DNA of 64,000 nt from a virus (taxonomy: Duplodnaviria > Heunggongvirae > Uroviricota > Caudoviricetes), in the IMG/VR virus record IMGVR_UViG_3300035210_000190. One strand, 5' to 3'. Position numbers and translations under genes: made by a program. Within the stretch, counting starts at the first letter, position 1. Every line of letters starts with the position of its first letter. Below, in pieces: positions 1,406 through 45,819 of this stretch. Under the pieces are notes generated by a model. The model saw nothing but the letters and a program-made list of their open reading frames with translations. It searched no databases and was not told where the DNA came from.

Positions 1406-1449
1406 TATTATTGATAACTAACAAAAAAATCTTGAAGGGTATTTTCAAT

Positions 1450-2667: not shown

Positions 2668-2709
2668 TGCTCAATCTATTATTTATCCAAAATTTGAGTT
2701 GAGTTTATT

Positions 2710-5088: not shown

Positions 5089-6117
5089 TTAGTTTTTTGA
5101 CTTCACATAAATTTCTTTCAAGCTGCTCACATCGAAATGTGGAGCCGTTGCATAAGAGAAGCTTGGACAGATTCTGTTACCACCCGCTATACCCTGACCA
5201 CCACAAGGCCCACCAGCACCCGCGACAGGCCATAATCCAAAGGTGTCTGTCATATCAGTAGGTCTTAAACCTATCCAACCAGCAGCTTCTGGGTAAAGTG
5301 TTTTAGACCCAATAGGTGTGTTTACTGTGAATCCACCTCCAATGTTTTGACCTTTGTTGAAGGTGCTGAATGTTTGCCAAGCACCAAACATACTAGTCCA
5401 TGTTGCGTTAGCATTCTTTACCATCATAGCAGAACTTATATTTACCGAACCACTTGGTATTACTGGATACGCTGTTGTATTATCTGAATAACTAAGTATT
5501 TTACCCGTTTTCATTGCGATATCTTGGAAGTTACGTTTAGTAGAGCCAGCCGGTAATTGTGTCCAACGACCTACCAATATCCAATTACCTCCTGCAGTGT
5601 TCATATCAACATAAGCCTTAGCTTTATTACCTAAACCATCAGTAATGTCGTAGATACCACTTTGTCCTGCAATTGGATTCATGATCATTAGATAACTTGT
5701 AGCCGTTCCCACTGCCTCTTTGGTATTCGTCAAGTTGCTCATTTCCTTACCCGATGCTTCATCGTTATAAGCAACACCTTTATCACGAATTTCACCCGTT
5801 ACAGCATTTTTTTCTTGCTTGATATAACTTTCATATTTCATACCCTTACAGTTTGTTGCGGTCTGAGTGTAGGTTGTATTGATCAACTCATCTGCTGGTA
5901 ATGGTGCCCAATTTGTACAACCGTATCTATATAATGGATCGTCTTTTGGCAAATCAACTAAACCTAATGATTTAGGTGCAATTTCTAACCACTCAACTTG
6001 TTTGAATTTTATTTCGACAGTGCCCATTATTACTTCGTATTTTGCGTAAGATATTCCGCAAAAAAGAGCAAGTGAAGCCATTGATAATACTTTTACCTTC
6101 TTGTTTGTCATATTCAT
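5089..6117 (-). CDS. secreted protein with signal peptide, Cys-repeat (CTxWxP...TQTAxxC) family, Gly-rich C-terminus
   Basis: N-terminal signal peptide MNMTNKKVKVLSMASLALFCGISYA; shares repeat module with 14742-15686 and 56615-57481; extremely AT-rich upstream flank 6118-6250. Confidence 0.75.
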   Translation of the reverse strand: MNMTNKKVKVLSMASLALFCGISYAKYEVIMGTVEIKFKQVEWLEIAPKSLGLVDLPKDDPLYRYGCTNWAPLPADELINTTYTQTATNCKGMKYESYIKQEKNAVTGEIRDKGVAYNDEASGKEMSNLTNTKEAVGTATSYLMIMNPIAGQSGIYDITDGLGNKAKAYVDMNTAGGNWILVGRWTQLPAGSTKRNFQDIAMKTGKILSYSDNTTAYPVIPSGSVNISSAMMVKNANATWTSMFGAWQTFSTFNKGQNIGGGFTVNTPIGSKTLYPEAAGWIGLRPTDMTDTFGLWPVAGAGGPCGGQGIAGGNRICPSFSYATAPHFDVSSLKEIYVKSKN

Positions 6118-7414: not shown

Positions 7415-8002
7415 ATGACTATGACGGCTATTGAACTTCGCAAAGACCTACTTATTTGGGTGGATCTTGAAACGACTGGCTTAGATATTGCTGACAAGTT
7501 GTCGGGTGCTCAGTATCACAAAATCCTTGAAGTCGGTATTCATATTACCGATTCGAAATTCAATATCATTGATGAAGGCTTTGAAGTGGTTATTCATCAT
7601 GACGTTGAAGAAGCCAAAGCACTGGCTAATGATTACGTCCGTAACATGCACATCACCAGTGGGTTATGGGAGCGTGTGGATGCCTCTCCTGTTTCATTGG
7701 CCGAAGCCGAGAAAATGATCTTGGCGTATATCGATCAGTTCAATATTGCCCCCGGTTCTAGCCCTATTTGTGGTAACAGTGTTTCGCTGGATCGCAACTT
7801 TATCATGGCCCAAATGCCAACCTTTGCCAGCATCTTGCATTACCGCATCATTGATGTAAGCACTCTCAAAGAAATCGTTTGGCGTGTAAAACCAGAAGTA
7901 GGCATGATGGTTAAGAAGCAAGAGAAACACCGTGGACTTGAAGATATTAAAGAGTCTATTGCCGAATACAAAATCTATGAAGAGTTCTTTTTTGTTAAGT
8001 AA
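7415..8002 (+). CDS. orn: oligoribonuclease (Orn) homolog, DEDDh 3'-5' exonuclease
   Basis: motifs LIWVDLETTGLD, SPICGNSVSLDRNFI, HYRIIDVSTLKEI, HRGLEDIKESIAEYKIY closely match bacterial Orn. Confidence 0.85.
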   Translation: MTMTAIELRKDLLIWVDLETTGLDIADKLSGAQYHKILEVGIHITDSKFNIIDEGFEVVIHHDVEEAKALANDYVRNMHITSGLWERVDASPVSLAEAEKMILAYIDQFNIAPGSSPICGNSVSLDRNFIMAQMPTFASILHYRIIDVSTLKEIVWRVKPEVGMMVKKQEKHRGLEDIKESIAEYKIYEEFFFVK

Positions 8003-9239: not shown

Positions 9240-9313
9240 GGCTGTTTGTAGTTCAGTCGGCAGAACTCCGTCGAAAAACGGTAGTCGTGGGTTCGAATCC
9301 CATCATACAGCCT
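9240..9313 (+). tRNA. tRNA-like gene with atypical anticodon arm (4-bp stem, 6-nt loop CGAAAA); identity undetermined
   Basis: acceptor stem, D-arm GTTC/GAAC, canonical T-arm GTGGGTTCGAATCCCAT; co-transcribed with basic peptide gene; terminator at 9320-9350. Confidence 0.5.
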
Positions 9314-9816: not shown

Positions 9817-10001
9817 AATTTCAATGACAGACTAAACTTAAAAAAGAAACCTGTGATGGTTTCTTTTTATTTTACTTTTATATAATTACTTTTTATAAAA
9901 ATATCTTTTTTTAGATTAATTATATATTTAATAATTACGCTTGCCTTTTTACTTTAATACTATTTAATAAGAAATAAATAGTTCATTAATTTGAGGTAAA
10001 A

Positions 10002-10859
10002 ATGACAAAAAAATATATTTTAGCGTTAATTGCTCTATCCAGTTTAGGCACTTTATCGCAAGCTGATTATCAAATTCATATTCCAATTCAACATGCAATT
10101 TCTTTCAATGATAACACTTCCAGTGGTGGCTCAGGCGGTAGTGGTGGTGGTGGATTAGTTTTTACTGACCCTACTATATTGGCTGCATATGAAGCTAAAT
10201 GTGGTTCGTTTCCTAATAAAATAAACCCTTTGACTGATCCTATACGAGACTATGACATTAGTTGTGGTGATTATTCAAATAGAAATCTTTCTGGTTACAT
10301 GCTTGATAAAACCGGTATGCTTTTTACTAATTTTGCAAATTCAATATTAGATGGAGCTATATTAGGTAATTCTAACTTAACTAACAGTAATCTATCAGGA
10401 GCATCCCTAATAGGCACTCAGTTTACCGTAAATGGAGAAAGCACTGCATTAACGAATGCCGATGTTAGTAATGCTAACTTAACAAATGCTTATATGGATA
10501 AATCATATTTAGAAAAAACTAATTTTACTGACTCTAATTTAACAAGTGCTGTATTAACTAATGCTGCTTTTGTTGGTGCAAACTTGACCAATGCTAACTT
10601 AACGAATGCTAATTTTGATACTTCCTATGTCACTGACACGAACTTTACTAATGCAAATTTTACAGGAGCTATATTAACTAATACTGCATTTATTAATACG
10701 AACCTAACTAACGCAAATTTGATTGGAGCTGATCTCAGTACGAGTAGTTTTACCAATGTTGATTTCACTAATATCTTGTATGATTCGACTACAAAATGGC
10801 CTTCATGGTACACACCACCAAAATCAAGCAATGGATATCAGTTCACACCGCAGTGGTAA
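10002..10859 (+). CDS. secreted pentapeptide-repeat protein
   Basis: signal peptide plus long run of A(N/D)LTN pentapeptide repeats; Gly/Ser linker. Confidence 0.75.
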   Translation: MTKKYILALIALSSLGTLSQADYQIHIPIQHAISFNDNTSSGGSGGSGGGGLVFTDPTILAAYEAKCGSFPNKINPLTDPIRDYDISCGDYSNRNLSGYMLDKTGMLFTNFANSILDGAILGNSNLTNSNLSGASLIGTQFTVNGESTALTNADVSNANLTNAYMDKSYLEKTNFTDSNLTSAVLTNAAFVGANLTNANLTNANFDTSYVTDTNFTNANFTGAILTNTAFINTNLTNANLIGADLSTSSFTNVDFTNILYDSTTKWPSWYTPPKSSNGYQFTPQW

Positions 10860-11669: not shown

Positions 11670-13240
11670 ATTGTAAATAACCCCGACCTGAAGGACGGAG
11701 CTTTTGTTTTTCTAGAAGCCAAAATTAGTGTGTAAACACTCTAATCTTATTTTCTTGGGGCAGTTTACTATGCCTCTACTGGCTTCTTCGAAATATTGAT
11801 CTCTCCACATTTCAAAATCACCTTTACTTTTTAACCATTTTCTCAATATATTCCCTGCTCCATTCACATCTGCATTTAGCAACTTTCCTAATGAGGATTT
11901 GAACAATCCTCTTTTGGATCTTGTTCCTAAATAGCTCTTATGTTTTTTAACTTCTTCTAAATCTAAAAAGCTTGTTTTTGAAGTATATGATTCTTCATGT
12001 TTAGCAAAAAGCAAACCTTTACTTTTAGCTTTATATTCAAGCATGTTTTTAAATTTAAAAAATGGGACAGATACAAAACTTTGATTATTAACAGACCCAA
12101 TATTGATGGATTGTTTCTGTTCTTTATTTTCACCAACTAGTATGGTGTTGAGATTGTTTTTCAAACAATACTCCACAATATAATTAGTTGATCGATGATA
12201 ATAATCGTTGATTTTGTTGGTTCTATTACGAGATAGTTTGTTTTTCTTTTTAATCATAGCACTAACATCTTGGTTATTGTTTCGACCAAGATCTATTTTA
12301 CTTGATAATTTAGCGACTTTCTTATTATACCATTGGTTTAGGGATTTTAGATAACGCCCATCAAGGAGGATGGACGAACCATTGGTGGAATTAAGGCATG
12401 CACCTAAATTATTCAAGCCAAGGTCAATGGAAAGATAACGACCGTTATCTTCCATTGCCTTATCTTCTTCAACTTCATAGACTACTTCTACTTTAAATTC
12501 TTCTCCATTACTTTTAGGCAAGATACGCACTTCGTTTATCTTTTTTATATGTTTTGGAATTGAAATTTCAAGTTTAGTAAGTAAATGAGGATATTCTTTT
12601 TTAAAGTTCTTTGAACAATTAATAACAACTCTATTAACAGTATCTTTTTCTAGTTCTGTTTTATTTTTAACAAATCGAACACTACGCCCTTGAATAACGA
12701 TATTGGAATAGGTTGGTTTATCTTTTTTTCGATTCTTCTTGTATCGTGGTAAATTAATGGTGTTGGTTTTGTTTACTGACTTTTTAGCTTTCAAACTACC
12801 AAAGAAAGCCTTCATATCTGAGTAGGCCACTCTTCTTATTTGTTGAGAACAATCATTCAGTAACAATGAAAAGTTCTCATTAAGTTTAGTGGCATGATAG
12901 AGTTCAGTATCAGAAGGCATTTTTTCTTTGTTGAAGAAAGCTTGACGTAAAGGATATAAGCAAACATTATACATTTGAGAAGCATGGACAGAGAGCATTT
13001 GAACTAATTCTTTTTCTTCTGGGCTAAACGATTTACACCACATAGAAAGTGTGCGTAAATATTTAACTCTTTTTTTAGATTTATTAGCCATAACACTCCA
13101 AAAGCCAACTAATAAAATAGTTGACTAAAATATGGTTATTAGTATACAATATAAAACTTAAAAGTCAACTATAATGAGTTGGCAAAAAAACAACCCTATT
13201 CCTCCCCTGCCTGAAGGAAGAGGTATCCAAGGGTTTAACT
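11670..13240 (-). mobile_element. tnpB-only IS200/IS605-family element (IS1341-like) with similar imperfect hairpins at both ends in direct orientation; boundaries approximate
   Basis: TnpB ORF flanked by CCCCGACCTGAAGGACGGAGC (11681-11701) and CCTCCCCTGCCTGAAGGAAGAGG (13200-13222), plus 86-bp imperfect palindrome 13104-13190. Confidence 0.6.
11712..13091 (-). CDS. tnpB: TnpB (IS605 OrfB-family RuvC-like RNA-guided nuclease/transposase accessory protein)
   Basis: RuvC-I IDLGLNNLGA, RuvC-II ESYTSKTS, RuvC-III NADVNGAGNI motifs; 459 aa. Confidence 0.85.
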   Translation of the reverse strand: MANKSKKRVKYLRTLSMWCKSFSPEEKELVQMLSVHASQMYNVCLYPLRQAFFNKEKMPSDTELYHATKLNENFSLLLNDCSQQIRRVAYSDMKAFFGSLKAKKSVNKTNTINLPRYKKNRKKDKPTYSNIVIQGRSVRFVKNKTELEKDTVNRVVINCSKNFKKEYPHLLTKLEISIPKHIKKINEVRILPKSNGEEFKVEVVYEVEEDKAMEDNGRYLSIDLGLNNLGACLNSTNGSSILLDGRYLKSLNQWYNKKVAKLSSKIDLGRNNNQDVSAMIKKKNKLSRNRTNKINDYYHRSTNYIVEYCLKNNLNTILVGENKEQKQSINIGSVNNQSFVSVPFFKFKNMLEYKAKSKGLLFAKHEESYTSKTSFLDLEEVKKHKSYLGTRSKRGLFKSSLGKLLNADVNGAGNILRKWLKSKGDFEMWRDQYFEEASRGIVNCPKKIRLECLHTNFGF

Positions 13241-13487
13241 AGATGACAAAGGATGAAAGATAGAATCTTTGTTAATTTATACAAAAAATTAGAGAAAAAA
13301 GATCCTTCTATTTCAATAGATCTAGGCATTTTTCAGTGTGTCTACATGATTTTAATTTTGCCTATTCTTTTCTTTAAAATCATGACAAGCATTGTTTCAT
13401 ATTTTGTTTCTTAATTATAAAAAAAATACGATATTGCTTGCCCCAAAACCATATTCTTGCTAGAATAGCCTCATCAAAACCTAGAAG

Positions 13488-14604: not shown

Positions 14605-14741
14605 TTTGACATTTATTGTGAAAAAAGAGAAGCTTCGGCTTCTTTTTTTTGTATGGTAAAAAAAAAGTAATTTTATATAACAATAAATTGACACAATATA
14701 AAACTACTTGTATTATAGTATTAATAATAATAATAAAAATC

Positions 14742-15686
14742 ATGTCCATTAAAAAAATACTCTTAGTTCCTGTACTTTCATTGTTAGGAATGAATTCTTT
14801 CGCAGAATATCAAATACAATATCCAAATGTTCCTGTAATCTTTAAAGATCTTGGTCAATGGGTTCCAACGAATCCTGTCATCTCTATTTGGGTTAATGTG
14901 GGAACTCCACATGATTGTACAAGTGCTGCACCACTTGAGAACACACAACAACTTGGTGTGTCTTATGAAAAAACATTCTCGGGCTGTAAGCAGTCCCAAG
15001 AAAGAACTGTAACCACTTCTGAAAAACAAACTGTTACTGGGGCTATTCGTAATCAAGTCAGCACCAAAGAAACACAAGTGTTAACTGATGCTAGTTATAA
15101 AGTAAATGCTATTGGCACTACCGATTTTGGTCAATGGTTAGAAACTGCTCCAGTTTATACAGGTTGGAGAAATCTTGAATCTCCACATGATTGCACAAGT
15201 GCTGCACCACTTGAAAACACACAAACACTTGGTTCAACTTATGTAAAAACATTTTCTGGTTGTAAACAATCACAAGAGCGTGATGTTACGACATCTGAAA
15301 AGAATACTGTTACAGGCAATGTTCGTAACGTGAAAACAACGAAGGAAACTCAGCTTATTACTGATGCCACTTATACTACAAATGCCACAGGCACTAAAAT
15401 AGTTAAAGAATGTGGATATTCAGCAGCAAGTGGAGCTTTTGCTAGATGGTATGATATTGCAACTTATGATGGTTATACAACTACTTATGGTATGGGCTTA
15501 CAATGGGCTGGTGCCACACTTGTTAACACTGCAAACAGCAGCACAACTTATCCAAAATCTGCGAATTATGTCAAATCTGGCTATGTTTACACACGCGGTG
15601 CGTTTAAAGAGAAATCTGGTCATAATGATAATATACGCACTTTTTACTACTATTATGAAGTCTGTAGAGAACCTGTTGCACCATAA
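14742..15686 (+). CDS. secreted protein with two tandem ~90-aa Cys-containing repeats (HDCTSAAPLENTQ...FSGCKQSQER...TVTG.IRN)
   Basis: signal peptide MSIKKILLVPVLSLLGMNSFA; internal duplication; perfect TTGACA-17-TATTAT promoter 14689-14717. Confidence 0.75.
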   Translation: MSIKKILLVPVLSLLGMNSFAEYQIQYPNVPVIFKDLGQWVPTNPVISIWVNVGTPHDCTSAAPLENTQQLGVSYEKTFSGCKQSQERTVTTSEKQTVTGAIRNQVSTKETQVLTDASYKVNAIGTTDFGQWLETAPVYTGWRNLESPHDCTSAAPLENTQTLGSTYVKTFSGCKQSQERDVTTSEKNTVTGNVRNVKTTKETQLITDATYTTNATGTKIVKECGYSAASGAFARWYDIATYDGYTTTYGMGLQWAGATLVNTANSSTTYPKSANYVKSGYVYTRGAFKEKSGHNDNIRTFYYYYEVCREPVAP

Positions 15687-18206: not shown

Positions 18207-18302
18207 TTTATGAAATAAAATCAAAAAGCTCAGAAATGGGCTTTTTTTTCATCTCTAATACTGCTATACTTGCGTTATCAAAACTTATTAAGGAAATCAT
18301 TC

Positions 18303-18935
18303 ATGTCGCTTACTCAAATCATTGAAGCTGTCAAAAAGTCACAAGAAACTCAGCGAGAAATTCTTTCTCGTTTGTTACCAATATCCGAAGCTCAAACCAT
18401 CTATTTTGATGATTATGAGCAGACTATTCAATTGACGGAATTTGCAGAAGCATTGGAAAACACTGATGACGCTGGCCTTTCCGATAAAGCTGTGGATATG
18501 CGTGATGAACTTGTGGCATTGTTGAAAGCTTTCAATGATGAAGTAGCCGAATGTGTCAAAGAAAACCAAGAGTCTAACAGACCCATTTTTGCAGAAAAAG
18601 AAGTCGAAGTTAACAATATGGAAAATATTCTCGCCACCGCAGCAGAAAAAGTGTTGACTCAAAAAATTCTTATCAATAGCACCAAATTTACTGATGAACA
18701 GATGAAAGCATTCCGTGAGATTTATCTGGAACTTGGCGTTACTCACTTCTTGATTGAAGACCTTCGTGATGTTATTTACTACAACCCAGAAGCACAACCA
18801 TATCTTCGAGATCTCATTGCAGAACGTTTCATGGGGCGGTTCCCAACCTATGTAAATCCTAAAGGTTACATGAATATGACTTCGGTTGACTTCATGAACA
18901 ACCTTGATCGTATTCAGAAGGCCGCTGTTAAATAA
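18303..18935 (+). CDS. hypothetical protein, 4-member paralog family D (with 20809, 44392, 45160)
   Basis: shared C-terminal motif Y..LG.TH/NY...D..YYNP. Confidence 0.65.
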   Translation: MSLTQIIEAVKKSQETQREILSRLLPISEAQTIYFDDYEQTIQLTEFAEALENTDDAGLSDKAVDMRDELVALLKAFNDEVAECVKENQESNRPIFAEKEVEVNNMENILATAAEKVLTQKILINSTKFTDEQMKAFREIYLELGVTHFLIEDLRDVIYYNPEAQPYLRDLIAERFMGRFPTYVNPKGYMNMTSVDFMNNLDRIQKAAVK

Positions 18936-20808: not shown

Positions 20809-21441
20809 ATGAACGCCCAAAAAGCTCAACAACTTGCCAAAGATACAGCAGTAAAAATTGAGAACCTTCAAGAGAGTCGGCTCCCTGTTGTTGAAGTGTT
20901 GGATATTTACGCCGAAGATGGTTTTGTGATTGGGCCTGCAGAAATCCTGCGTGCATTTACCCAGTTCAATACTCAGAACCTTCCGAAACGGGTTGAAGAA
21001 CTGAAAAAGTCGATTATTGCCTCCATGAATGAGATGAATGCTCTTGTTGAGGAAGAACAGGCAAAAGTCGCGTTGCACAACCAAAAGATTGATCTGGAAG
21101 TTGGTAGCTTGACAGCCACTCTGTTGGACAACATCCGTGATGTGCCTGAAAGCCGATTGACTCGAAAACTTCGCATTGGTAAAAAAATCATTTCAGAAGC
21201 GGATCGGCCACTTTTGAAAGAAGCTTATCGAAACCTTGGCTTCAAACATATCTCCATTGAACCAATCAGTGACTATATCTACTTTGATCCAGAAGCTGAT
21301 GAAATCCGTCAACCGTTTCTGAGAGAATTTCATCGTTTGACTGATAACAAATATCCGTCCCTCAGTCAGTATGTGCAATATGACAATTCTCGTATTGAAA
21401 ACATGGATGTGTTGTTGCATGTTGTTGGTTTGAATAGTTAA
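20809..21441 (+). CDS. hypothetical protein, paralog family D
   Basis: promoter TGTGGTATAAT; paralogy. Confidence 0.65.
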   Translation: MNAQKAQQLAKDTAVKIENLQESRLPVVEVLDIYAEDGFVIGPAEILRAFTQFNTQNLPKRVEELKKSIIASMNEMNALVEEEQAKVALHNQKIDLEVGSLTATLLDNIRDVPESRLTRKLRIGKKIISEADRPLLKEAYRNLGFKHISIEPISDYIYFDPEADEIRQPFLREFHRLTDNKYPSLSQYVQYDNSRIENMDVLLHVVGLNS

Positions 21442-21760: not shown

Positions 21761-21894
21761 GTGGATGTAAACCTAAAGGGGCTTAGGCTCCTTTTTTCAT
21801 TTTTCCGTAATATAAGACAGTTTTTGTTGATAGTTTTGTATGGTTGGTGTATAATCAGGTTTCTTTCTTATAAACACATTTTTTGGAGTTTTAC

Positions 21895-22416
21895 ATGGCT
21901 AATAAAACAATCAAGGCGACATTGCTCATTGAAGACAAGAACATCACTGTTGATGAACTCAATGACCTGTTTGCCGGTGCCACGAACAAAATCAAAGGCT
22001 TGAGCTTTTTGATTAACGAGCAAGCTTATAAGGCCAATAACCTCAGTAAATATCTGTTGACGGCGATTAAAGATGAAAAATCATCGGCTATTGAAATTGA
22101 TGAAATCGATCTGCCTAAATCGCTACCTAAATTGGTGAAGCTGGCGGCTAATGTTGGTAACAAGATTGACGCAGCCGTCTATGCAGAAGCCTACGATATT
22201 TTCTGTCGAGAACTGGCAACGGCTGATAGCGTCTATATCTGCACCCATTTCTTGGGTATGCGATTGGTTGTTACTCGCTTGGTTGATACTAATCAAGAAC
22301 AAAAATCTCGTTGCAACAAAGCATGGCTTGAAAATTTTGTTGACATTAACCTCAACAAAGAACGTAAAGGTTTGACCCTTGATGTTAGTGCTGTCTTCTT
22401 CGGCCAGCCAGATTAA
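21895..22416 (+). CDS. hypothetical protein
   Basis: promoter TGTATAAT, RBS GGAG. Confidence 0.6.
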   Translation: MANKTIKATLLIEDKNITVDELNDLFAGATNKIKGLSFLINEQAYKANNLSKYLLTAIKDEKSSAIEIDEIDLPKSLPKLVKLAANVGNKIDAAVYAEAYDIFCRELATADSVYICTHFLGMRLVVTRLVDTNQEQKSRCNKAWLENFVDINLNKERKGLTLDVSAVFFGQPD

Positions 22417-22489
22417 CAGTTGACGCTTTTGTAAAAAATCTATATAATAAGGGAGATCTTCGGATCTCCTTTTTTTTGAGATTGAAATT

Positions 22490-22954
22490 ATGAACTTACA
22501 ACTTAGACACCGTTGTCTTCAATTTAACACGGAAGGGACTATTGTTTACGACCCCGACCGTGGCACCATGAAGAAAAACATTGAACATTGGGCTGTTATC
22601 ACGATAGAACCGGATATCGCGGCTTACTATCGCCATCAGTTTTATCAACGGTATGGCATAGAGTTGGATAAGCCTAACTGGGATGTTCATTGCTCAGTGC
22701 TGAAAGGATATACCAATACCGACACGTCTAAGCCGTGGGGTTGGCTCGACCAACAACCTGTTGAACTGCATTACACCCATGAATTGTTCTGGAATGATTC
22801 TCATGTATGGATAAACTGTTATTCAGCCGAGTTTTTTAAAATTCGTGAATACTATAACGTGTTGGGGACAGACCAAGGACATATTACTATTGGGAAGTTT
22901 AAGCATTATCAAAAAGACAGGCTAAAACCCTTCAAAAACTACGTTCAAGATTGA
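22490..22954 (+). CDS. 2H phosphoesterase superfamily protein (LigT/cyclic phosphodiesterase-like; possible Acb1-like anti-CBASS nuclease)
   Basis: two H-x-S/T-x motifs (VHCSVL ~res 66, GHITIG ~res 133) with spacing typical of 2H fold; 154 aa. Confidence 0.5.
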   Translation: MNLQLRHRCLQFNTEGTIVYDPDRGTMKKNIEHWAVITIEPDIAAYYRHQFYQRYGIELDKPNWDVHCSVLKGYTNTDTSKPWGWLDQQPVELHYTHELFWNDSHVWINCYSAEFFKIREYYNVLGTDQGHITIGKFKHYQKDRLKPFKNYVQD

Positions 22955-24202: not shown

Positions 24203-24297
24203 CAGTAGACAGCTTAAAAAAAGCCCGCTTCGTGCGGGTTTTTTGTTTATCTTTTTTAAATTTTATGGTATAATTTAACAAATTTTGGAGGTCAATC

Positions 24298-25151: not shown

Positions 25152-25706
25152 ATGACTCAAGTTAAAATCAATTTGAACAATGCAAAAGATGCTCAGTCTG
25201 CAGTCAATGCGGTATTGTCGGTTCAGTTGAAGCTGGAAAAGATCGTAGCTGCTTTGCAACACACTAATGCGGCACCTCACTATAAATACTTGATCAATTA
25301 CATGGTTGGTCCAGTTGGTATGGCTATCTCTGTTAGTTCAACCGAGTTGACAGAGGAAGGTTGTCATTTGGGAAATCGTTTGGCGGATGCTGGTGTTTTG
25401 GAACTCAAGCATGAGAAACCTTACGCTGAAATTTCTACGGCAACGCTTGATTACATGATTGATGAACACATGAAAAACAATACGCTGGTTATTAAAGGTT
25501 CTGATATTCGTTATTACCCAAAAGAACCTGTCAAAAACCAACGTTGGGCCACTTTGACTGATGATGTTAAAATCATTGTGACTAAGCTGGAATTGACTAA
25601 TGAAGATCATCAGGAATTTCGTCAACGTCAACTGAAAGAAGCTTTTGATGCCGTGGCAAAATTGGGTTACACAATTGACGAAGAAGGTGTTCTGACCGTA
25701 GTCTAA
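25152..25706 (+). CDS. hypothetical protein, paralog of 38617-39192
   Basis: shared IKGSD(I/V)R and W..LTD.V.I.VT.L motifs. Confidence 0.65.
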   Translation: MTQVKINLNNAKDAQSAVNAVLSVQLKLEKIVAALQHTNAAPHYKYLINYMVGPVGMAISVSSTELTEEGCHLGNRLADAGVLELKHEKPYAEISTATLDYMIDEHMKNNTLVIKGSDIRYYPKEPVKNQRWATLTDDVKIIVTKLELTNEDHQEFRQRQLKEAFDAVAKLGYTIDEEGVLTVV

Positions 25707-28837: not shown

Positions 28838-29416
28838 ATGAATGAGCATTCAGTTTTTAATACGAAAGATGAACAATTGGCTCAAGAAGTCGGTATTGCG
28901 GTGGCTCGCAGTATGTTCAAAGACCACCAAAATACTAAATATCAGTCCTTTTTGTTCTCTTGGCAGACACATGGCACTGTCGTGGCCGAAATGGCGTCAG
29001 GTAAGCTATTTATCTACTTTCGTGCTAATCCAGTGAACTATGCCGCTTTGCAAGCCATCACAGCCACGGCAGCACTCACTGAATGGAACATTTTGGTCAG
29101 TAATTCACCGGAATCGTTGCCGGTTGCTGTTTTTACTGTTGACGATATCGTGGAGCAATCCAAACAGTATTTTCATCGTTTTTACGAAATCCTTGAAATT
29201 GAATTCGCACACAATTTCACAAAAGAACATCCAGACGCTGCAGAACTTGACTGGAAAGTCGCTTTCAATCATTTGCACACACCGCTTTATGTCTATAACA
29301 AGGGTATTGAAAAACTCGAAAGTATTGTTCGTGAAAAAGGCTTTTCAGTAGAAGAAGCTGACGTTATTTTCCAAAATGTTCGACCTTACTTAAAACGTCT
29401 TTACATTGAAGATTGA
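28838..29416 (+). CDS. hypothetical protein, tandem paralog pair F (1 of 2)
   Basis: shared N-term (DE.LAQ.VGI..AR..F.D) and C-term (LHTP.YVYNK) with next ORF. Confidence 0.65.
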   Translation: MNEHSVFNTKDEQLAQEVGIAVARSMFKDHQNTKYQSFLFSWQTHGTVVAEMASGKLFIYFRANPVNYAALQAITATAALTEWNILVSNSPESLPVAVFTVDDIVEQSKQYFHRFYEILEIEFAHNFTKEHPDAAELDWKVAFNHLHTPLYVYNKGIEKLESIVREKGFSVEEADVIFQNVRPYLKRLYIED

Positions 29417-29423
29417 GGTTATT

Positions 29424-30023
29424 ATGAAAAAACATCAATTATTCCAAACAGAAGATGAAATATTAGCTCAAAATGTTGGTATTTCTTATGCTCGTGAATT
29501 GTTTCAAGATTCGCTTGATGTTGGACAACAAGACGTTTCTTTTTCTTGGGGTACTTTTGGAGACTCGGCAGTTCGTATTGCTGTTGTAAGCTTGGCTCTC
29601 TATTTTCCAGAGACAAAAACAAATATTATCGAACTCAAAAAAATTACAGAGATTTCATTTATCACAGAATGCGAAATTCTTGTTGAAAATGCTGGTTCTA
29701 CACTGGTAATTGGTTGTCACTCTGTTGATGAAATTCGTAATTATTTAACTAAAAATTTTGATGGCTTTTATGATAAATTGAAGAGCCGTTTCAAGCGTGA
29801 TTTTCGCCGTTCTAATCCTGATGTAGTCGATTTGGATGTTCATTGGAAAATTGCTTTTACCACTTTACATACGCCGACATATGTTTATAACAAAGCATTT
29901 GATTATCTGGAACGATACTTAAATAATAAAGGTCTTGAAAGCACTGTAATTCAAGAACTGCATATTGAGTTTACTCAATACTTGAAAAATCTTTTTCTTG
30001 GTGCAGATTTAAAAATTATTTAA
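29424..30023 (+). CDS. hypothetical protein, tandem paralog pair F (2 of 2)
   Basis: paralogy; RBS GAGGT. Confidence 0.65.
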   Translation: MKKHQLFQTEDEILAQNVGISYARELFQDSLDVGQQDVSFSWGTFGDSAVRIAVVSLALYFPETKTNIIELKKITEISFITECEILVENAGSTLVIGCHSVDEIRNYLTKNFDGFYDKLKSRFKRDFRRSNPDVVDLDVHWKIAFTTLHTPTYVYNKAFDYLERYLNNKGLESTVIQELHIEFTQYLKNLFLGADLKII

Positions 30024-30030
30024 AGATTGC

Positions 30031-30060
30031 TTATTTTTCAGTTTTTTGATATCATTGCTC
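30031..30060 (+). promoter_or_regulatory. MotA-box-like middle promoter (TTGCTTA ... TGATATCAT); duplicated at 30579-30608
   Basis: TTGCTTATTTTTCAGTTTTTTGATA repeated verbatim ahead of both paralogs. Confidence 0.45.
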
Positions 30061-30084
30061 TCTACATTACAGAGGTTACACATC

Positions 30085-30522
30085 ATGGGTATTGGTAAAT
30101 ATTCTCCAACAGTCAGCACTTCATACCGTAAAGATCAAAATTGGTATGAAAAGAATGGCGGTGGTTTTGGCAATGGTAAAAACCCTGAATCTGATTACGA
30201 TGATGATGGCTTCGATGCATACGGCTATAACGCTGATGATCGTGATCGAGCTGGTCATCATGAGAATGACTATCCTGCTAGTTTTCATTGGGATGATGGG
30301 GTTGAATATTATCCACTGCATGAATCTGTTCAATCTGAATGGGGTGGTCGTTGTATTCTTGCTATGCGTAAAGCCCGTGAAGAAGCTGCTGCTAATCCAG
30401 AAATGCAAGAAGCCTTCCGTCAACTTGCAGAAGTTCAAGACATTCTCCGAAAAGCTGCTGAGATTGAGCGTGGCCTGAAAGCCGATATTACTAAGGCTTA
30501 TCCTGACTTGCTGCTCGATTAA
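30085..30522 (+). CDS. hypothetical Gly/Asp-rich protein, tandem paralog pair G (1 of 2)
   Basis: N-term MG(I/V)GKYSPTVS.SY..D..W(Y/F)EKNGGGFGNG shared with 30632. Confidence 0.65.
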   Translation: MGIGKYSPTVSTSYRKDQNWYEKNGGGFGNGKNPESDYDDDGFDAYGYNADDRDRAGHHENDYPASFHWDDGVEYYPLHESVQSEWGGRCILAMRKAREEAAANPEMQEAFRQLAEVQDILRKAAEIERGLKADITKAYPDLLLD

Positions 30523-30631: not shown

Positions 30632-31204
30632 ATGGGCGTTGGAAAATATTCCCCAACTGTTAGCCGCTCTTACAGTCAAGATAAAGACTGGTTTGAGAAA
30701 AATGGTGGTGGTTTTGGCAATGGGTTTATGCCCGAATCTCAATTCGATAATCAGGGTTATGATTCGTATGGCTATTCAGGCTATACTGATCGTGACCGGG
30801 CGGGTTATACCGAAAGTGATTACCTGAATGACTCTCATGGTGATAACCAGCGTGGTATCTATGATCGTGTGCGTGATTTGTGGGATCATTACAATGTGCC
30901 CACCATTCTCGATATGGCGATGATTGTTGCTACAAAAGTTGAAAACGACAATCTTTTCGCCTTTAACCATGCGAAAATGGTAACTGTCATCAATATCTAC
31001 GAAGCCGCCAACACAGCCAAACACCAATTGGATCAAACTTTCAAAATGGGTACTGGTGCCGAAGGTAACGAAATCTATCAAAAAGAGTTCAACGAATTTT
31101 TCAAGGAAGTGGCTAAAAACATTGCTGAACACAGTGTTTTCTTGGAAGAGTTTTATGACAAATTCTTGACTGATTTTGTCCAGCTTCAAAAAGCTTTTAA
31201 ATAA
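30632..31204 (+). CDS. hypothetical Gly/Asp-rich protein, tandem paralog pair G (2 of 2)
   Basis: paralogy, duplicated promoter. Confidence 0.65.
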   Translation: MGVGKYSPTVSRSYSQDKDWFEKNGGGFGNGFMPESQFDNQGYDSYGYSGYTDRDRAGYTESDYLNDSHGDNQRGIYDRVRDLWDHYNVPTILDMAMIVATKVENDNLFAFNHAKMVTVINIYEAANTAKHQLDQTFKMGTGAEGNEIYQKEFNEFFKEVAKNIAEHSVFLEEFYDKFLTDFVQLQKAFK

Positions 31205-31580: not shown

Positions 31581-32435
31581 ATGCTTAAAAAGATTTTTGC
31601 TTCTCTTGTTCTTCTGGCCTCAGTTGCCCTCAGTGGGTGTTCTGAAACCGTAGATGCGGGTTTTGTCGGTGTGGTTGAAAAACACCCCTACTTCGGCACT
31701 GGTGGTGTAGAGAAAGAAGTTTATAAAGGTGGTGATCGCTATTATATCTCGCCAACTTCCATCATGCACCGCTATGACATTAAACCTATTCAGAAAGAAG
31801 AGGCGTTTAATGACTTGGCAACCATTAACTCGACTCCGGTAGACTTTAAAGCGGTGGTTCGTTATGAAATCATTCCTGAAAAAGCTTACATCTACCATGA
31901 AAGCTTTGGTAATGCAATGTATGATAATAACTTGAAAAAAGACTTTCAAAACATGCTTCGTGACTTTGCTCGAAAACACACTGTGAAGCAACTCACTACA
32001 GAACAGACAGTGACTGACTCAGGTGAAGACGATGTTTACAAGAAAATGGTTGACATTGTTGTAGCAAAAGGCATTCCGGTTCGAATTTTGGCTGTAACTA
32101 TCGGTGCAATTATGCCGCCAGATGAAGTTCTTGCAGAAACTGCTCGGACAGAAGCTCAAATTCAACGTGCATTAACTGAAATTGAACGAGCGTCTGCTGA
32201 AACTCAGCGAAAAGAAGCTGAAACCAACAAAGCTGCTGCTGACAATGAATACATGAGCAAAATGAAAATGACACCTGAGCAATACTTGCGAGGTCGTGAA
32301 ATTGACAACCAGCGTGAGATTGTTGAAACGGTCAAAAAGAAAGATAACGTCAACATGTTGATTGTCTTGGGTGGTGGTGGCTCCCTTCCACAAGGGGTAA
32401 CAGTTCCACAGCCCATCGTTCAACCAAAGCAGTAA
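31581..32435 (+). CDS. SPFH/band-7 domain lipoprotein
   Basis: lipobox LSGC; SPFH-like core and C-terminal coiled coil AETARTEAQIQRAL. Confidence 0.6.
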   Translation: MLKKIFASLVLLASVALSGCSETVDAGFVGVVEKHPYFGTGGVEKEVYKGGDRYYISPTSIMHRYDIKPIQKEEAFNDLATINSTPVDFKAVVRYEIIPEKAYIYHESFGNAMYDNNLKKDFQNMLRDFARKHTVKQLTTEQTVTDSGEDDVYKKMVDIVVAKGIPVRILAVTIGAIMPPDEVLAETARTEAQIQRALTEIERASAETQRKEAETNKAAADNEYMSKMKMTPEQYLRGREIDNQREIVETVKKKDNVNMLIVLGGGGSLPQGVTVPQPIVQPKQ

Positions 32436-33832: not shown

Positions 33833-34954
33833 ATGTCCAGCATCTTCCCCCGTATTGAAACCCTTGATGATATGATTCCTCATATCAAAGACCGTGCCTA
33901 TATTTCTCTTAACAAACAGGATAACGGTGCCGACATCGTTTGCTACAACATCAGCAACGGTGACTCTTTCAACACTCCGGTTGAAAAGGAAGCTCGCGGT
34001 ATTACCTTTGACGACAACGGTAAAATACTGTCGCGTCCATTGCACAAATTCTTCAACTTGGCAGAGCGTGCAGAAGTCCAGCCAGCCGTTTTGGATTGGA
34101 ACACTATGGTTGCCGGGTTTGATAAAATGGATGGCTCCATGATTACCACAGGGCTGTTCAAAGGCGAATTCTTTGCTAAGTCCAAGAAGTCTTTCAAATC
34201 GGATGTGGCTGTTTCGGCAGAAGGCTTTGTGTCTCGTAACCAGAAATACTACGAGTTCACCAAATATTGCTCTCAGGCCCAACTGACGCCAATTTTTGAA
34301 TTCACTTCGCCAAAGCATCGTATCGTTTTGCGTTATGACGAAGACAACATGACATTGCTTCATGTTCGTCACAACATCACAGGCGATTACTTAATGCCTG
34401 CTGAAAAAGACCAACTGGCGTTGTTGTTTGATATTCCTGTTAACAAGCCACTGTTTGGTGAAGAATTTGATTTGGCTTCCCTGTTGAAGTCGCTGAACAC
34501 GGTTGAAGGGATTGAAGGCTATGTTATTCAATTCGTTAACGGTAACATGATCAAAATCAAAACCAAATGGTATATGAATCTCCATCATGCGGTTAGCTTT
34601 GTTCGTGAACGTGATATTGCTCGTTTGGTGGTCGAAGAAAAACTTGATGATTACATTGCTTATTTGTCGCTAAACTCGCCAACGGCTGATTTGAGTGAAA
34701 TTTATCGTATCAATGACGCTATCAAAGCTTCGATTGAAGCGTTGTCGAAAGAGGTTGATGATATTGCTGCTGCATTCCAAGGTGTTGACGTGAAAACTGC
34801 AGCAATCCAACTCAAAGGCCACAAACACTTTGGTTTTGTTATGGGGGCAATTCGTGGTCACAAAAACGACTACCTGTATCACTACTCTAAAAACCATCTG
34901 GTGGATTGGTCGTTGGACCAAATTGAGCTTGGCGACTTGTCCGCTCCCGTTTAA
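33833..34954 (+). CDS. RNA ligase, Rnl1 family (divergent paralog A)
   Basis: KFFNL, nucleotidyl-lysine motif DKMDGSM, EGYVIQFVNGNMIKIKTKWYMNLH matching T4 Rnl1 motifs. Confidence 0.8.
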   Translation: MSSIFPRIETLDDMIPHIKDRAYISLNKQDNGADIVCYNISNGDSFNTPVEKEARGITFDDNGKILSRPLHKFFNLAERAEVQPAVLDWNTMVAGFDKMDGSMITTGLFKGEFFAKSKKSFKSDVAVSAEGFVSRNQKYYEFTKYCSQAQLTPIFEFTSPKHRIVLRYDEDNMTLLHVRHNITGDYLMPAEKDQLALLFDIPVNKPLFGEEFDLASLLKSLNTVEGIEGYVIQFVNGNMIKIKTKWYMNLHHAVSFVRERDIARLVVEEKLDDYIAYLSLNSPTADLSEIYRINDAIKASIEALSKEVDDIAAAFQGVDVKTAAIQLKGHKHFGFVMGAIRGHKNDYLYHYSKNHLVDWSLDQIELGDLSAPV

Positions 34955-35072: not shown

Positions 35073-35456
35073 ATGAAAACTATTCGTGAAAAAGCAGCCG
35101 ATGTAGATATTACAAACACAGATTTTTTGAATTTCATAGCACGGTTCCGTAAAGGTGACACGTCTGTTGTTTGTTGGTCTTTGGTTGAAGATGGTTCTTC
35201 TGGTATCGAGGAAACTATTGCTTGCCCACCCAACTTTCAACTGGTTGCCATGATGTTTCCAGACGTTTCGGCGGTGGTTATGATGGAACTGGCTCAAAAA
35301 CTGCGTAGCTTTTTCAACTCTTGGTGGATAACCGAAGAACCCGAAGCGTATTCAGAGCCGCCACGGAACTATTCGCGTTTTTCAGCAACCATTGAATACA
35401 CTCGCCTTTATGTCTTCTATCTTGAACAGAAAAAAGCGATGGACGCAAAAGCGTAA
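35073..35456 (+). CDS. hypothetical protein
   Basis: promoter TGATGTATAAT; RBS AGAGG. Confidence 0.6.
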   Translation: MKTIREKAADVDITNTDFLNFIARFRKGDTSVVCWSLVEDGSSGIEETIACPPNFQLVAMMFPDVSAVVMMELAQKLRSFFNSWWITEEPEAYSEPPRNYSRFSATIEYTRLYVFYLEQKKAMDAKA

Positions 35457-35547
35457 AGATCACAATAAAAGGCAGTCTTTGACTGTCTTTTTCGTTGTTT
35501 GAAAACAATATTTCATGTATAATCCACTGATTACCACAGAGGTTTCT

Positions 35548-35868
35548 ATGACTAAATTTCGAATTACCTATGATCCAACAAATGGTGTTGCAACCCCAGA
35601 TGGATTGTGTGTCGGTCTGGTGGATGAACTGATTTCTTTGCGTCATCTTGGCGATGTAAGCTACACGACTTCGACGGCCAGTGTCATCACAGCATTCCGC
35701 TTAGCCGCTGCTGAAAAGAAAATCAGTGTTGACGATGTTGTCTTTGCCTTTGATGATGCCGATATCACAATGGATAGCAAATTTGAACTGTCTGCTTGGC
35801 CGAAAGGTTTTTGTGATGTTCAAGGCGACATGCTCAATAAAATTATGCAAGCACGAAGAAAAGTTTGA
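35548..35868 (+). CDS. hypothetical protein, paralog of 55253-55564
   Basis: ITYDPTNGVATPDGL / LVYDPIHGVPTSDGL and GFCD motifs shared. Confidence 0.6.
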   Translation: MTKFRITYDPTNGVATPDGLCVGLVDELISLRHLGDVSYTTSTASVITAFRLAAAEKKISVDDVVFAFDDADITMDSKFELSAWPKGFCDVQGDMLNKIMQARRKV

Positions 35869-35912: not shown

Positions 35913-37046
35913 ATGGAGATTCACATGACTTATCAACAAGAACTGTATGCCCAACTGATGAACCTGTTGGTTACTAATCCGGGGTCTTTTAAATACCGTG
36001 ATGAAATCTCGGCGGTAGACGGTGGGACTTACCGTGTCTTCAACTATGACATTCCAAAGCACTCCGAATTCAAACTTCCGGGTGCCAAGGATTGCCGTGG
36101 AGTCATGTTCTACATGGGCGGTTCTGAGCCAATGCTGGTGGCATTGCCAATGCAGAAATTCTTTTCCTTGGGCGAAACCCCTGAAACGCAAAAGGTGAAG
36201 CCAGAAGAAGCCGACCACGCTTATCTGAAACCCGATGGCTCGTTGCTCACCAGCTATATTTCTCCGATCAATAATACTCTTTACTACAAGAGTAAAAAGA
36301 AGCCTACGTTTGCTGATTACGGCCTTGTTGAACAGTCTATCAGTCCAGAATTGCACGCAGACGTTGAACGGCTGACCCGCACAGGTGTTTCGGTTGACTT
36401 GGAACTGACCACGCCGAAAAACCGTGTTTTCATCGAATACACTACCTACGAAGTTCATGTGTTGAAAGCCCGCGACATGAACACAGGGGCTTATGTGGAC
36501 ATTCGTTCGGCAGAATTTGCCGCAGAATATCCGGTTATTGCGGCCCATTTGGTGAAACGTATCCCTATCAATGAACTCAACGTTAATGACCCTGAAATTG
36601 AGGGTTATGTGGTTGAATTTGGCCCTGACATGTATAAGGTCAAGACCATTCCTTACCTGAAAATGTCGGCAGTGGTTAACATTCAGGATCGTTCGAAGGA
36701 ACGTCAGGTTATTTATGAAGCAACTCTTCATGAAATTCTGGATGAAATTCGTTCGCTGTATCATTACCGGACACACAGCGACAACTTCCCACTGGCTGAA
36801 ATTCTGGCTCGCTTGGATGAAGTCGAAGACTACGCCCGTAAAAGCTACCATTACCTTGTTCGCACGGTTGATAGCTTCCACGATGAGCATAAAGGTTTGG
36901 AACGTGGCGATTACGCTCGTAAAGCCAAAGAAGTGGCTCCATTGCTTCTGTCGGTGTTGATGAGCAAGTTTTCGGGTGACGAGATTGATTACAAACAAGC
37001 CGCTATCATGGTGTTTGCTCGTAAACAAGTGCCTATCCCCGAGTAA
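35913..37046 (+). CDS. rnlA: RNA ligase 1 (T4 Rnl1-like; likely start 35925)
   Basis: TYRVFNY, DCRGVMFYM, QKFFSL, LKPDGSLL (lysine motif I), EGYVVEF...YKVKT match T4 Rnl1. Confidence 0.85.
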   Translation: MEIHMTYQQELYAQLMNLLVTNPGSFKYRDEISAVDGGTYRVFNYDIPKHSEFKLPGAKDCRGVMFYMGGSEPMLVALPMQKFFSLGETPETQKVKPEEADHAYLKPDGSLLTSYISPINNTLYYKSKKKPTFADYGLVEQSISPELHADVERLTRTGVSVDLELTTPKNRVFIEYTTYEVHVLKARDMNTGAYVDIRSAEFAAEYPVIAAHLVKRIPINELNVNDPEIEGYVVEFGPDMYKVKTIPYLKMSAVVNIQDRSKERQVIYEATLHEILDEIRSLYHYRTHSDNFPLAEILARLDEVEDYARKSYHYLVRTVDSFHDEHKGLERGDYARKAKEVAPLLLSVLMSKFSGDEIDYKQAAIMVFARKQVPIPE

Positions 37047-38616: not shown

Positions 38617-39192
38617 ATGTCTACTATCAATGTTGGTAAACTCTCTGAAATCAAATCCAGTGTTGTATTGAAACGCAAGCTTGAACAAATCAAGTCTGGT
38701 ATCAAAATGGCCGTGAGCCAGTTGGAAAAGACGGCAGTGGTTGTTCCACAAGAATACCTGTTCACTTTCCGCATGGGTCACAAGATTTTCACCGTTGTTC
38801 CTAACACGGAAGAACTTTCCAAAGGCACCTTCGACTTGGGACAACAGCTTAAAAAACTGGAACTGGCTGACTTTCAAAAGGTCAATCTGCTGGTTGAGAT
38901 TGAATCTGTTTCTTTGGCCGACCGGCTTAACAGCATGAAATCGGATGTGTTGACCATTAAAGGTAGTGATGTTCGTTTTCGTGCAAAACACATCATCAAG
39001 CCAGCACAACCCGGCCAAGAACACCTGAACGCATGGTCGAATTTGACCGATGTTGTCTCGATTGTCGTCACCCGCCTTCCAGAAAATCCAGAAGTGCGTG
39101 TTCAAGCCGAATTGGCACACTTGAAAGACGTTATTGAAAATTCGAGCATTTTCGCAGTAGATAAAGATGAAAATCTTTTGATTAATCTGTAA
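38617..39192 (+). CDS. hypothetical protein, paralog of 25152-25706
   Basis: shared motifs. Confidence 0.65.
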   Translation: MSTINVGKLSEIKSSVVLKRKLEQIKSGIKMAVSQLEKTAVVVPQEYLFTFRMGHKIFTVVPNTEELSKGTFDLGQQLKKLELADFQKVNLLVEIESVSLADRLNSMKSDVLTIKGSDVRFRAKHIIKPAQPGQEHLNAWSNLTDVVSIVVTRLPENPEVRVQAELAHLKDVIENSSIFAVDKDENLLINL

Positions 39193-45159: not shown

Positions 45160-45819
45160 ATGGTGATAACAATGACATTAACTGTTGAAGACATTAAAAA
45201 ACTGACGGCTACTTTTGAAGTAGACAAAGCTGCACTGCAAGCTAAAATCCAGCGTGCTCCTGATTCTCCAGAGATTTGGTATGAAGAGCATGAAGACAGT
45301 CGTTCACTTGCTGATATTGTTCGTGGGTTGAGCACTGACTCTATGCCACCAGAAGCGTTTGCTATGCATGAAAAACTCATTGCTGATCTTGAATGTTTTG
45401 GCAATATCATTAATAAAAAAATTTCCGAAGTGTCGGATCACAACGCTCGGATTTATAGCCAAATTGAAAAACTGAACAAAGATTTCTTGGCAGCTATCCG
45501 CGTCCCTGAGAGCGATTTGGGAGCCGCTTTGCTCATCAACAAGAAAATCATCGATCCAGAAGATTATGACAAACTGGTGGCTGTCTACCGTGAGCTTGGC
45601 TTCACGAATTACAGTATCAAGGCTCAGCGTGACACCGTTTATTACAACCCTGATAAATGGCACTTCAATACGCTGAAAGATGAGATCTTTAATACGCTTT
45701 CGAAAGACTTGCGTAAAAAATATCCGACATTCCTGAATTTTATTCAGAACAGTGTTGTCAACACTAACCCAACTTATGGTAGTGGTCTTATTCATGTGAT
45801 GGAAGCTCGCCAAGAGTAA
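45160..45819 (+). CDS. hypothetical protein, paralog family D
   Basis: paralogy. Confidence 0.7.
   Translation: MVITMTLTVEDIKKLTATFEVDKAALQAKIQRAPDSPEIWYEEHEDSRSLADIVRGLSTDSMPPEAFAMHEKLIADLECFGNIINKKISEVSDHNARIYSQIEKLNKDFLAAIRVPESDLGAALLINKKIIDPEDYDKLVAVYRELGFTNYSIKAQRDTVYYNPDKWHFNTLKDEIFNTLSKDLRKKYPTFLNFIQNSVVNTNPTYGSGLIHVMEARQE

Follow-up and report, generated by a model that had tools for sequence, protein, structure and literature searches.

Background

Enzymes of the 2H phosphoesterase superfamily use two histidines for metal-independent acid-base catalysis on a phosphodiester that adjoins a ribose hydroxyl; the typical reaction opens a 2',3'-cyclic phosphate (PMC4201822, PMC9117128). 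In ThpR, a cyclic phosphodiesterase (CPDase) that acts on RNA ending in a cyclic phosphate (RNA>p), Arg130 in the motif HxTxxR is the essential phosphate-binding residue (PMC4201822). Acb1 is a phage 2H enzyme of a different kind, a nuclease directed against CBASS, the antiphage defence that signals through cyclic oligonucleotides; it has a C-terminal lid at residues 145-152 that carries W147 (PMC9117128). Two comparative-genomic studies from Aravind's group treat 'Swiss-army-knife' proteins as components of RNA-end processing (PMC7824862, PMC9503650). 2H enzymes in jumbo phages have already been noted in the literature. Here we describe a gene for a small 2H phosphoesterase in a 64,000-nucleotide stretch of DNA (the window) from the IMG/VR virus record IMGVR_UViG_3300035210_000190, and compare it with these systems.

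Judged by its conserved motifs and its modelled fold, the gene encodes a genuine 2H phosphoesterase. It belongs to a jumbo-phage family that is distinct from Acb1, and the Acb1 label should not be transferred to it. In a minority of loci, members of this family have a real association with RNA-repair partners. With a little less than an even chance, the enzyme would be a 2',3'-cyclic phosphodiesterase for RNA>p or for ADP-ribose cyclic phosphate (ADPr>p) in phage RNA repair.

Family membership and catalytic motifs

The sequence-only reading of this DNA had pointed to a 154-amino-acid open reading frame (ORF) with two H-x-S/T motifs and a 2H fold. The ORF is present on the + strand (Table 1), and both the motifs and the fold are supported. 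Comparison of the query protein with a 77%-identical copy (L003) gives a ratio of nonsynonymous to synonymous substitution rates (dN/dS) of ~0.11; the ORF therefore encodes a protein under purifying selection.

The query matches phrog_12204, a family annotated 'unknown function', with E = 4.8e-20; residues 12-137 align with positions 2-135 of the 138 in the profile. Homologs from Serratia phage BF and from metagenomic jumbo phages match the same profile at 1e-29 to 1e-70, and every relative tested falls in it. Nine close homologs with the same gene order are found on metagenomic contigs of up to 208 kb. An exhaustive profile search retrieved at least 687 cluster representatives at E <= 1e-3, of which 174 reach E <= 1e-10 (clusters at 50% identity). 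Copies with 25-30% identity were found by tblastn in Rak2-like and other jumbo phages, namely CBB, GAP32, K64-1, Serratia phage BF, fHe-Yen9-03, fHe-Yen9-04, Atu_ph07 and Vibrio phage 2.275.O. No phage genome matched the region by megablast. Most of the 69 IMG/VR loci with a family gene lie on contigs longer than 100 kb, and two contigs carry two copies of the family ~30 kb apart (L051 with L081; L053 with L078).

The query has no match in Pfam even at E <= 10, PF22547 (2H-SAK) included, and neither the query nor the alignment of 141 sequences found anything usable among PDB sequences or in NCBIfam. When each of the 141 members was scanned against Pfam, 108 matched PF22547 at E <= 1 (best 1.1e-8). 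Its gathering cut-off of 27 bits is passed by P0161 (31.7 bits) and P0079 (27.3 bits); other members score 15-27 bits, and most relatives stay below the cut-off. A precomputed PF22547 assignment exists for ~20 of 120 profile hits, and the other Pfam matches among the 141 members are to LigT_PEase (12) and 2_5_RNA_ligase2 (six). The relation to 2H-SAK, as far as these profile scores indicate, holds at the family level; the query itself is outside the PF22547 model. The query is a divergent new member of a known superfamily, and its family is already catalogued as phrog_12204 and in part as 2H-SAK. The meaning of '2H-SAK' is taken here from the Pfam description and the papers citing it. Burroughs and Aravind reportedly defined 'Swiss Army Knife' RNA-repair proteins in 2016. 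In the literature, no biochemical assay of phrog_12204 or 2H-SAK members was found.

A pair of H-x-S/T motifs alone is weak evidence, as chance matches are not rare in 154 residues. Here the pair is meaningful because H67, S/T69, H131 and T133 are conserved. The first motif, HCSV, occupies residues 67-70 (22688-22699) and the second, HITI, residues 131-134 (22880-22891). In a MAFFT alignment of the query and 143 homologs of 120-200 amino acids, H67 is present in 144/144 sequences, S/T at position 69 in 143/144 and R/K at position 72 in 121/144. For the second motif the counts are 143/143 (H131), 142/143 (T133), 133/144 (G135) and 101/144 (R/K at position 136). A second alignment of 141 sequences, A2, gives the same picture. 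At least 141 homologs with 20-30% identity thus show invariant or near-invariant His and Ser/Thr residues. The protein has one more H-x-S/T match, HYTH (residue 94), and this one is not conserved. The aromatic residues Y20, W34, Y46, Y47, W64, W83, Y95 and W107 are also conserved in the family.

The query shares with 2H-SAK and phrog_12204 the two HxS/T motifs and a core of ~130-140 amino acids. The window clade differs in adding a basic LRHRC N-terminus and a 17-residue aromatic C-terminal tail. The N-terminal segment is gapped in ~80-100 of the 144 family members, depending on position, and is modelled as a short helix (residues 3-8). Most family members stop ~6 residues past HxTxG in the MAFFT alignment. 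By analogy with Acb1 (PMC9117128), it may be speculated that the tail of the window clade is a substrate lid.

Like ThpR, the query has a basic residue at +5 after the catalytic His, in its case after both (HxSxxK72 and HxTxGK136), and an RNA>p end-healing role is predicted for it as for ThpR/LigT. It differs from ThpR/LigT in length (154 versus 176 amino acids), in lacking HxTxxF and in having the basic residue in both motifs. ThpR/LigT models do not match the query; weak hits occur in only 12/141 members for PF02834 and 3/141 for TIGR02258.

Predicted fold

AlphaFold2, given the 141-sequence alignment, models the protein with a mean predicted local distance difference test score (pLDDT) of 90.9 and a predicted template-modelling score (pTM) of 0.85. 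The order of elements is beta12-20, beta34-38, alpha41-55, beta67-72 (HxS), beta90-95, beta105-111, alpha113-121 and beta131-137 (HxT), a layout that corresponds to a duplicated beta-beta-alpha-beta(HxT) unit. The modelled query accordingly has the bilobed alpha+beta fold of two beta-alpha-beta(HxT) units. The C-terminal tail is less confident than the core: in the deep-alignment model the block-mean pLDDT is 90 for residues 141-150 and 63 for residues 151-154, and in the first model residues 149-154 were below 50.

The figures listed with the fold result are 6.2 for Acb1 FBB1, 5.9 for CNPase, 5.9 for mouse hepatitis virus (MHV) ns2, 5.7 for Pyrococcus horikoshii LigT, 5.4 for Acb1 BCSR5, 5.4 for the Deinococcus radiodurans CPDase, 5.2 for the penguinpox cyclic GMP-AMP (cGAMP) phosphodiesterase, 5.2 for YjcG, 5.1 for Usb1, 5.1 for AKAP18 and 5.0 for ThpR. 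A Foldseek search of BFVD returned one family member (E = 8e-8). The other matches in BFVD are marginal (E >= 1e-2, template-modelling score ~0.4), and proteins labelled Acb1, LigT and 2H-SAK occur among them alike, with no discrimination.

Comparison with Acb1

The sequence-only reading had also called the protein Acb1-like. As a statement of family membership this was not borne out. T4 gp57B (NC_000866) matches the Pfam model PF23474 'Acb1' at 2.7e-60 and phrog_755 at 5e-68, and PF23474 is carried by 66/66 full-length T4 Acb1 relatives; the query and its relatives match neither model. A search of the window with an Acb1 hidden Markov model (HMM) found no Acb1 homolog.

Profile-profile alignment gives little more. 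When A2 was compared with an Acb1 alignment (A3) in hhalign, the probability was 16% over 36 columns, which cover only the generic beta-alpha-beta(HxT) unit; lobe 2 of the query family was paired with lobe 1 of Acb1. With T4 Acb1 by itself, the query family's lobe 1 aligns with lobe 2 of Acb1. A tandem-duplicated profile aligned over 127 columns (Acb1 residues 2-143), compared with 82 for the single profile, and the score rose from 19 to 28; the probability, the best for a permuted comparison, was 20%. These alignments hint weakly at a half-repeat shift (circular permutation) of the family relative to canonical 2H proteins, in which case the place of the canonical C-terminal strand may be taken by the N-terminal strand 12-20.

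The two families have in common the 2H fold, an HxT/HxT-type tetrad, a length of ~150 amino acids (152 in Acb1, 154 in the query) and a phage origin. They belong to separate Pfam families and separate PHROGs, and their lobes appear to come in swapped order. At +5 after each His, Acb1 has a nearly invariant Tyr (Y49, Y118) where the query has K72 and K136. No counterparts of the conserved Acb1 residues Y12, Y49, Y118 and E141 were found in the query family, and no alignable ones of the ligand-contact residues Y12, W74, F107, W147 and E141. Acb1 has a C-terminal strand and lid; most members of the query family have no tail, and the window clade has a PFxxY tail. Median isoelectric points also differ (8.7 in the 2H family versus 5.8 in Acb1), with the query itself at 6.75.

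Both families can occur in one genome. In L041 and L042, an Acb1 homolog at 12868-13380 on the - strand (Acb1 profile 4e-21, phrog_755 2e-20) lies 4.5 kb from the 2H family gene. Yersinia phage fHe-Yen9-04 encodes a 148-amino-acid protein labelled Acb1 and the 140-amino-acid family member g178; this co-occurrence rests on the UniProt label, as the tblastn listing for Acb1 included no Rak2-like jumbo phage, while that in L041 and L042 was shown directly. The presence of Acb1 and the 2H family in the same genomes argues against simple redundancy.

T4 Acb1 (L002 3953-4411, gene 57B) and its orthologs are still named 'RNA ligase' in RefSeq/GenBank and in PHROG 755.

Gene neighbourhoods across the family

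In the 69 IMG/VR loci, partner genes lying no more than 8 kb from the family gene were counted with home-made HMMs; detection by these models is insensitive. The counts are 5/69 for YqeY, 10/69 for NUDIX, 1/69 for SIR2, 2/69 for Macro, 2/69 for Rnl1 and 3/69 for the CCA-adding enzyme. Among 77 Acb1 loci, none of these partners except NUDIX was found (YqeY 0/77).

The closest link is to YqeY. Protein P0124 (335 amino acids) is a fusion of the 2H domain and YqeY (Pfam 4e-17; phrog_1460 'tRNA amidotransferase'). YqeY lies directly upstream of the family gene in L013, where SIR2 is three genes downstream, and one gene away in L007 and L008. In L039 it begins ~390 nucleotides downstream, with a Macro domain 5 kb away. 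It is also found within 8 kb in L035, L037, L058, L070, Serratia phage BF and fHe-Yen9-04.

In these last two phages the family gene follows an RNA ligase by 2.4 kb, and the next 6 kb encode a CCA-adding tRNA nucleotidyltransferase, a Nudix hydrolase, a YqeY/GatB-like protein and a Macro ('Appr-1-p processing') protein. L014 and L009 have NUDIX downstream, at a distance of one or two genes. SIR2 is near the family gene in L013 and L044, Macro in BF, L039 and L043, Rnl1 in BF, L019 and L028, and the CCA-adding enzyme in BF, L028 and L055. The genes predicted in these neighbourhoods point to tRNA/RNA-end and ADP-ribose chemistry, not to CBASS evasion.

This company resembles the Sirtuin/2H/Nudix/cREC neighbourhoods of jumbo phages, for which NAD-dependent RNA-end repair has been predicted (Iyer et al. 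2021, 2022): Serratia phage BF and its relatives carry a family member, and SIR2, NUDIX, Macro, RNA ligase and CCA-adding genes are found next to members of the family. The window differs in that no such partner adjoins its 2H gene. The 2H gene that Iyer et al. place near the sirtuin AQW88637.1 was not confirmed as BF_0183; gene numbering suggests that the two are ~70 genes apart.

Proposed function and alternatives

The case for a cyclic phosphodiesterase in RNA repair is made by the fusion and adjacency to YqeY, the company of ligase, CCA-adding, Macro, Nudix and SIR2 genes, the ThpR-like basic residue after each His, the relation to 2H-SAK and the ligases of the window. In addition to two Rnl1 ligases, the window encodes Band_7, NUDIX and tRNAs. 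The gene would be transcribed from a host-type early promoter. The two His residues of the enzyme would serve as general acid and base and the Ser/Thr residues would hold the phosphate, in metal-independent catalysis, with K72, K136 and R119 adding positive charge at the predicted active site. The enzyme would open 2',3'-cyclic (or 1'',2''-cyclic) phosphates. Its substrate could be the RNA>p termini that host anticodon nucleases produce on tRNAs, which phage RNA ligases would then reseal; it could instead be ADP-ribose>p, the by-product of NAD-dependent 2'-phosphate removal. Both this substrate range and the link to the Rnl1 ligases of the window are what we infer from the observed tetrad and family associations.

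A number of observations weigh against this role. The window and its syntenic relatives have ORFan neighbours at this gene; in the window the ligases are 11-13 kb and NUDIX 26 kb away. Searches of the 64 kb detected no Pnkp, Tpt1/KptA, SIR2, Macro or YqeY. The homologs behind the RNA-repair associations are only 25-30% identical, and ~20/69 loci have any partner. The N- and C-terminal additions of the window clade may mean that its substrate has shifted. T4 Acb1 was long labelled 'RNA ligase' and lies beside tRNA genes, yet it is an anti-CBASS nuclease; such context has misled before.

This last point also bears on a rather unlikely alternative, an independent Acb1-like nuclease that would cut cyclic oligonucleotide signals early in infection, whether cGAMP or cyclic triadenylate (cA3) of CBASS, cyclic oligoadenylate (cOA) of type III CRISPR or another messenger. 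The chemistry would be the same as in Acb1, the size is similarly minimal (154 versus 152 amino acids) and the promoter is of an early type. The aromatic tail of the clade (P147, F148, Y151) is reminiscent of the Acb1 lid with W147 (PMC9117128), the basic LRHRC segment and the tail could close over a small ligand, and the family has many conserved aromatics. The gene also has an accessory, ORFan-rich setting, for Acb1 itself the RNA-repair labels drawn from context were wrong, and Iyer et al. count jumbo-phage 2H enzymes among possible counter-nucleotide defences (PMC7824862). However, the family is outside PF23474 and phrog_755, with the low hhalign probability given above, and most of its members have no C-terminal tail. 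No counterparts of Y12, Y49, Y118 and E141 were found in it, and it has Lys/Arg after both HxT motifs. Some genomes carry both families (L041, L042, fHe-Yen9-04), and the genes that recur near the family concern tRNA and ADP-ribose, not anti-defence.

In a further reading that we hold to be unlikely, the protein would be a strand-shifted minimal 2H enzyme specific to jumbo phages, with an LRHRC clamp and a PFxxY lid in this clade, that acts on a substrate so far assigned to no phage 2H enzyme. This substrate might be a tRNA-bound intermediate handled with YqeY or a host immune nucleotide unlike those that Acb1 cuts; in the latter case the family would be a new group of anti-defence nucleases with an origin independent of Acb1.

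A different RNA-directed 2H role is quite improbable. The enzyme would be a 2',5'-phosphodiesterase like ns2, VP3 and AKAP7 or a Usb1-like 3' exoribonuclease, the latter trimming RNA to cyclic phosphate ends, and would work with YqeY on tRNA. RNase roles were proposed by Iyer et al., as were 2',5'-oligoadenylate (2-5A)-type ones, for phage 2H domains that have no ligase association (PMC5512222), and the YqeY fusion implies a tRNA-sized substrate. However, the likely hosts have no known 2',5'-oligoadenylate system, the ns2, VP3, AKAP7 and Usb1 families show no link to the protein at the sequence level, and the association with ligase, CCA-adding, Macro and Nudix genes fits end healing better than degradation.

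That the protein is non-enzymatic or unrelated, with a coincidental or vestigial H-x-S/T pair, is scarcely credible: in a protein of 154 residues a chance pair of such matches is not rare, and HYTH supplies a third, but the near-invariant His and Ser/Thr in at least 141 homologs, the confidently predicted 2H fold and the purifying selection all speak against it.

Upstream signals

The sequence-only reading had credited the gene with its own promoter and terminator in an accessory region. The promoter is there (Table 1), with 11 of 12 consensus matches, though such promoters are common in the window: sigma-70-like candidates number 54 on the + strand and 11 on the - strand, and lie before most + strand genes, 25-35 nucleotides 5' of the ATG. 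An own promoter was considered as the mark of a special gene and rejected, since similar promoters precede most + strand genes. Both promoter hexamers are invariant in the relatives L003, L004 and L006 (~9931-9990 there); the spacer varies.

The terminator was misplaced. The only terminator-like hairpin is upstream of the ORF, between the -10 box and the ATG, and the next one on the + strand past the 2H gene is at 24218-24244. The upstream hairpin was tried as the terminator of the 2H gene and rejected, as it is located 5' of the ATG and not behind the gene. It has a predicted energy of -12.3 kcal/mol and is the only strong hairpin in the window that directly follows any promoter. The UUCG-loop hairpin and its T8 are invariant in L003, L004 and L006 despite 23% protein divergence. 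It probably terminates read-through from the upstream gene at 21883-22416. Together, promoter and hairpin may form an insulator that stops upstream transcripts and lets promoter-initiated ones through: transcripts begun ~7 nucleotides past the -10 box would lack part of the 5' arm of the hairpin, which would then be passed.

The description of the region as accessory is fair. The flanking 6 kb consist of ORFans that match nothing in Pfam or PHROG, and this is also true of the four syntenic metagenomic contigs. The 2H gene is an ordinary accessory early gene of the window.

Other features of the window

The window is an early-gene, paralog-rich region of an uncultured jumbo phage. Judged by Rnl1, the nearest cultured phage is the 344-kb Ralstonia jumbo phage RsoM2USA (41% identity). 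The rest of the window was covered by a Pfam scan of concatenated ORFs; in addition to the features in Table 1, it contains DUF2807 and a GNAT. Three tRNAs pass Rfam thresholds.

Table 1. Coordinates of the 2H gene, its signals and motifs, and other features of the window
Feature	Position	Strand	Details
2H phosphoesterase ORF	22490-22954	+	154 amino acids; family phrog_12204, relative of Pfam 2H-SAK; ATG start, TGA stop at 22952-22954
Sigma-70-like promoter, early-type	22420-22448	+	TTGACG-17 nt-TATAAT; 11/12 consensus matches
Hairpin	22449-22479 (stem-loop 22449-22472)	+	GGAGATC-TTCG-GATCTCC, 10-pair stem, then T8; between -10 box and ATG
Clade-specific basic N-terminal segment	22490-22516	+	M-N-L-x-L-R-H-R-C, residues 1-9; invariant in 10-sequence clade
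First catalytic motif	22688-22705	+	H67-C-S69-V-L-K72; family consensus H-I-S-x-x-R/K-G; conservation in alignment
Second catalytic motif	22880-22897	+	H131-I-T133-I-G135-K136; family consensus H-x-T-x-G-R/K; conservation in alignment
Clade-specific C-terminal tail	22901-22951	+	Residues 138-154; conserved P147, F148, Y151; clade alignment
RNase_T/Orn-like (oligoribonuclease-like) exonuclease	7415-8002		9e-18
tRNA-like	9242-9312		Undetermined anticodon (ARAGORN); Rfam 44 bits
Pentapeptide-repeat protein	10002-10859
TnpB-like protein	11712-13091	-	OrfB_IS605 3e-18; Cas12f1-like TNB domain 3e-9; phrog_506 'transposase'; opposite strand to most genes
Band_7/SPFH gene	31581-32435	+	~9 kb downstream of the 2H gene
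Rnl1-type RNA ligase 1	33833-34954	+	26% identical to ligase 2
Rnl1-type RNA ligase 2	35913-37046	+	Small ORFans between the ligases
HNH	47277-47771
NUDIX	48998-49600		4e-9
tRNA-like	51939-52012		Undetermined anticodon (ARAGORN); no Rfam support
tRNA-Leu(taa)	58898-58982
tRNA-Met(cat)	59248-59324

It is possible that Band_7 and the two Rnl1 ligases, 9-14 kb downstream, are pathway partners of the 2H gene. Their arrangement resembles the SPFH/Band-7-linked RNA-repair systems that Burroughs and Aravind are said to have proposed in 2016. The RNase_T-like exonuclease and NUDIX could each work downstream of a phosphodiesterase for nucleotides or RNA ends, but they lie far from the 2H gene.

The window holds several sets of paralogs. 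Three tandem ORFs of 413, 418 and 415 amino acids (164-3957) are 27-33% identical and have no Pfam or PHROG match. An ORFan family of ~210-220 amino acids has four members (18270-18935, 20809-21441, 44392-45048 and 45160-45819), one of them 1 kb upstream of the 2H gene. Further paralogs come in pairs: 28838-29416 with 29406-30023, 30046-30522 with 30632-31204, 35515-35868 with 55253-55564, 35073-35456 with 62925-63278, and 25152-25706 with 38617-39192. Three further paralogs with signal-peptide-like N termini and repeated Cys motifs (5089-6117 on the - strand, 14649-15686 on the + strand and 56615-57481 on the - strand) match no family.

Implications

Phages have a second 2H family that is much more diverse (at least 687 clusters) than, separate from and co-occurring with Acb1. 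Small phage 2H proteins are at risk of receiving the Acb1 label by default, and T4 Acb1 was itself called 'RNA ligase' for decades; that stale label could mislead the automatic annotation of such proteins. If the family proved to degrade immune signals, this would be an independent origin of counter-defence. The repeated pairing with YqeY, a tRNA-binding domain, and with ADP-ribose-processing genes predicts how jumbo phages would heal tRNA damaged by nucleases.

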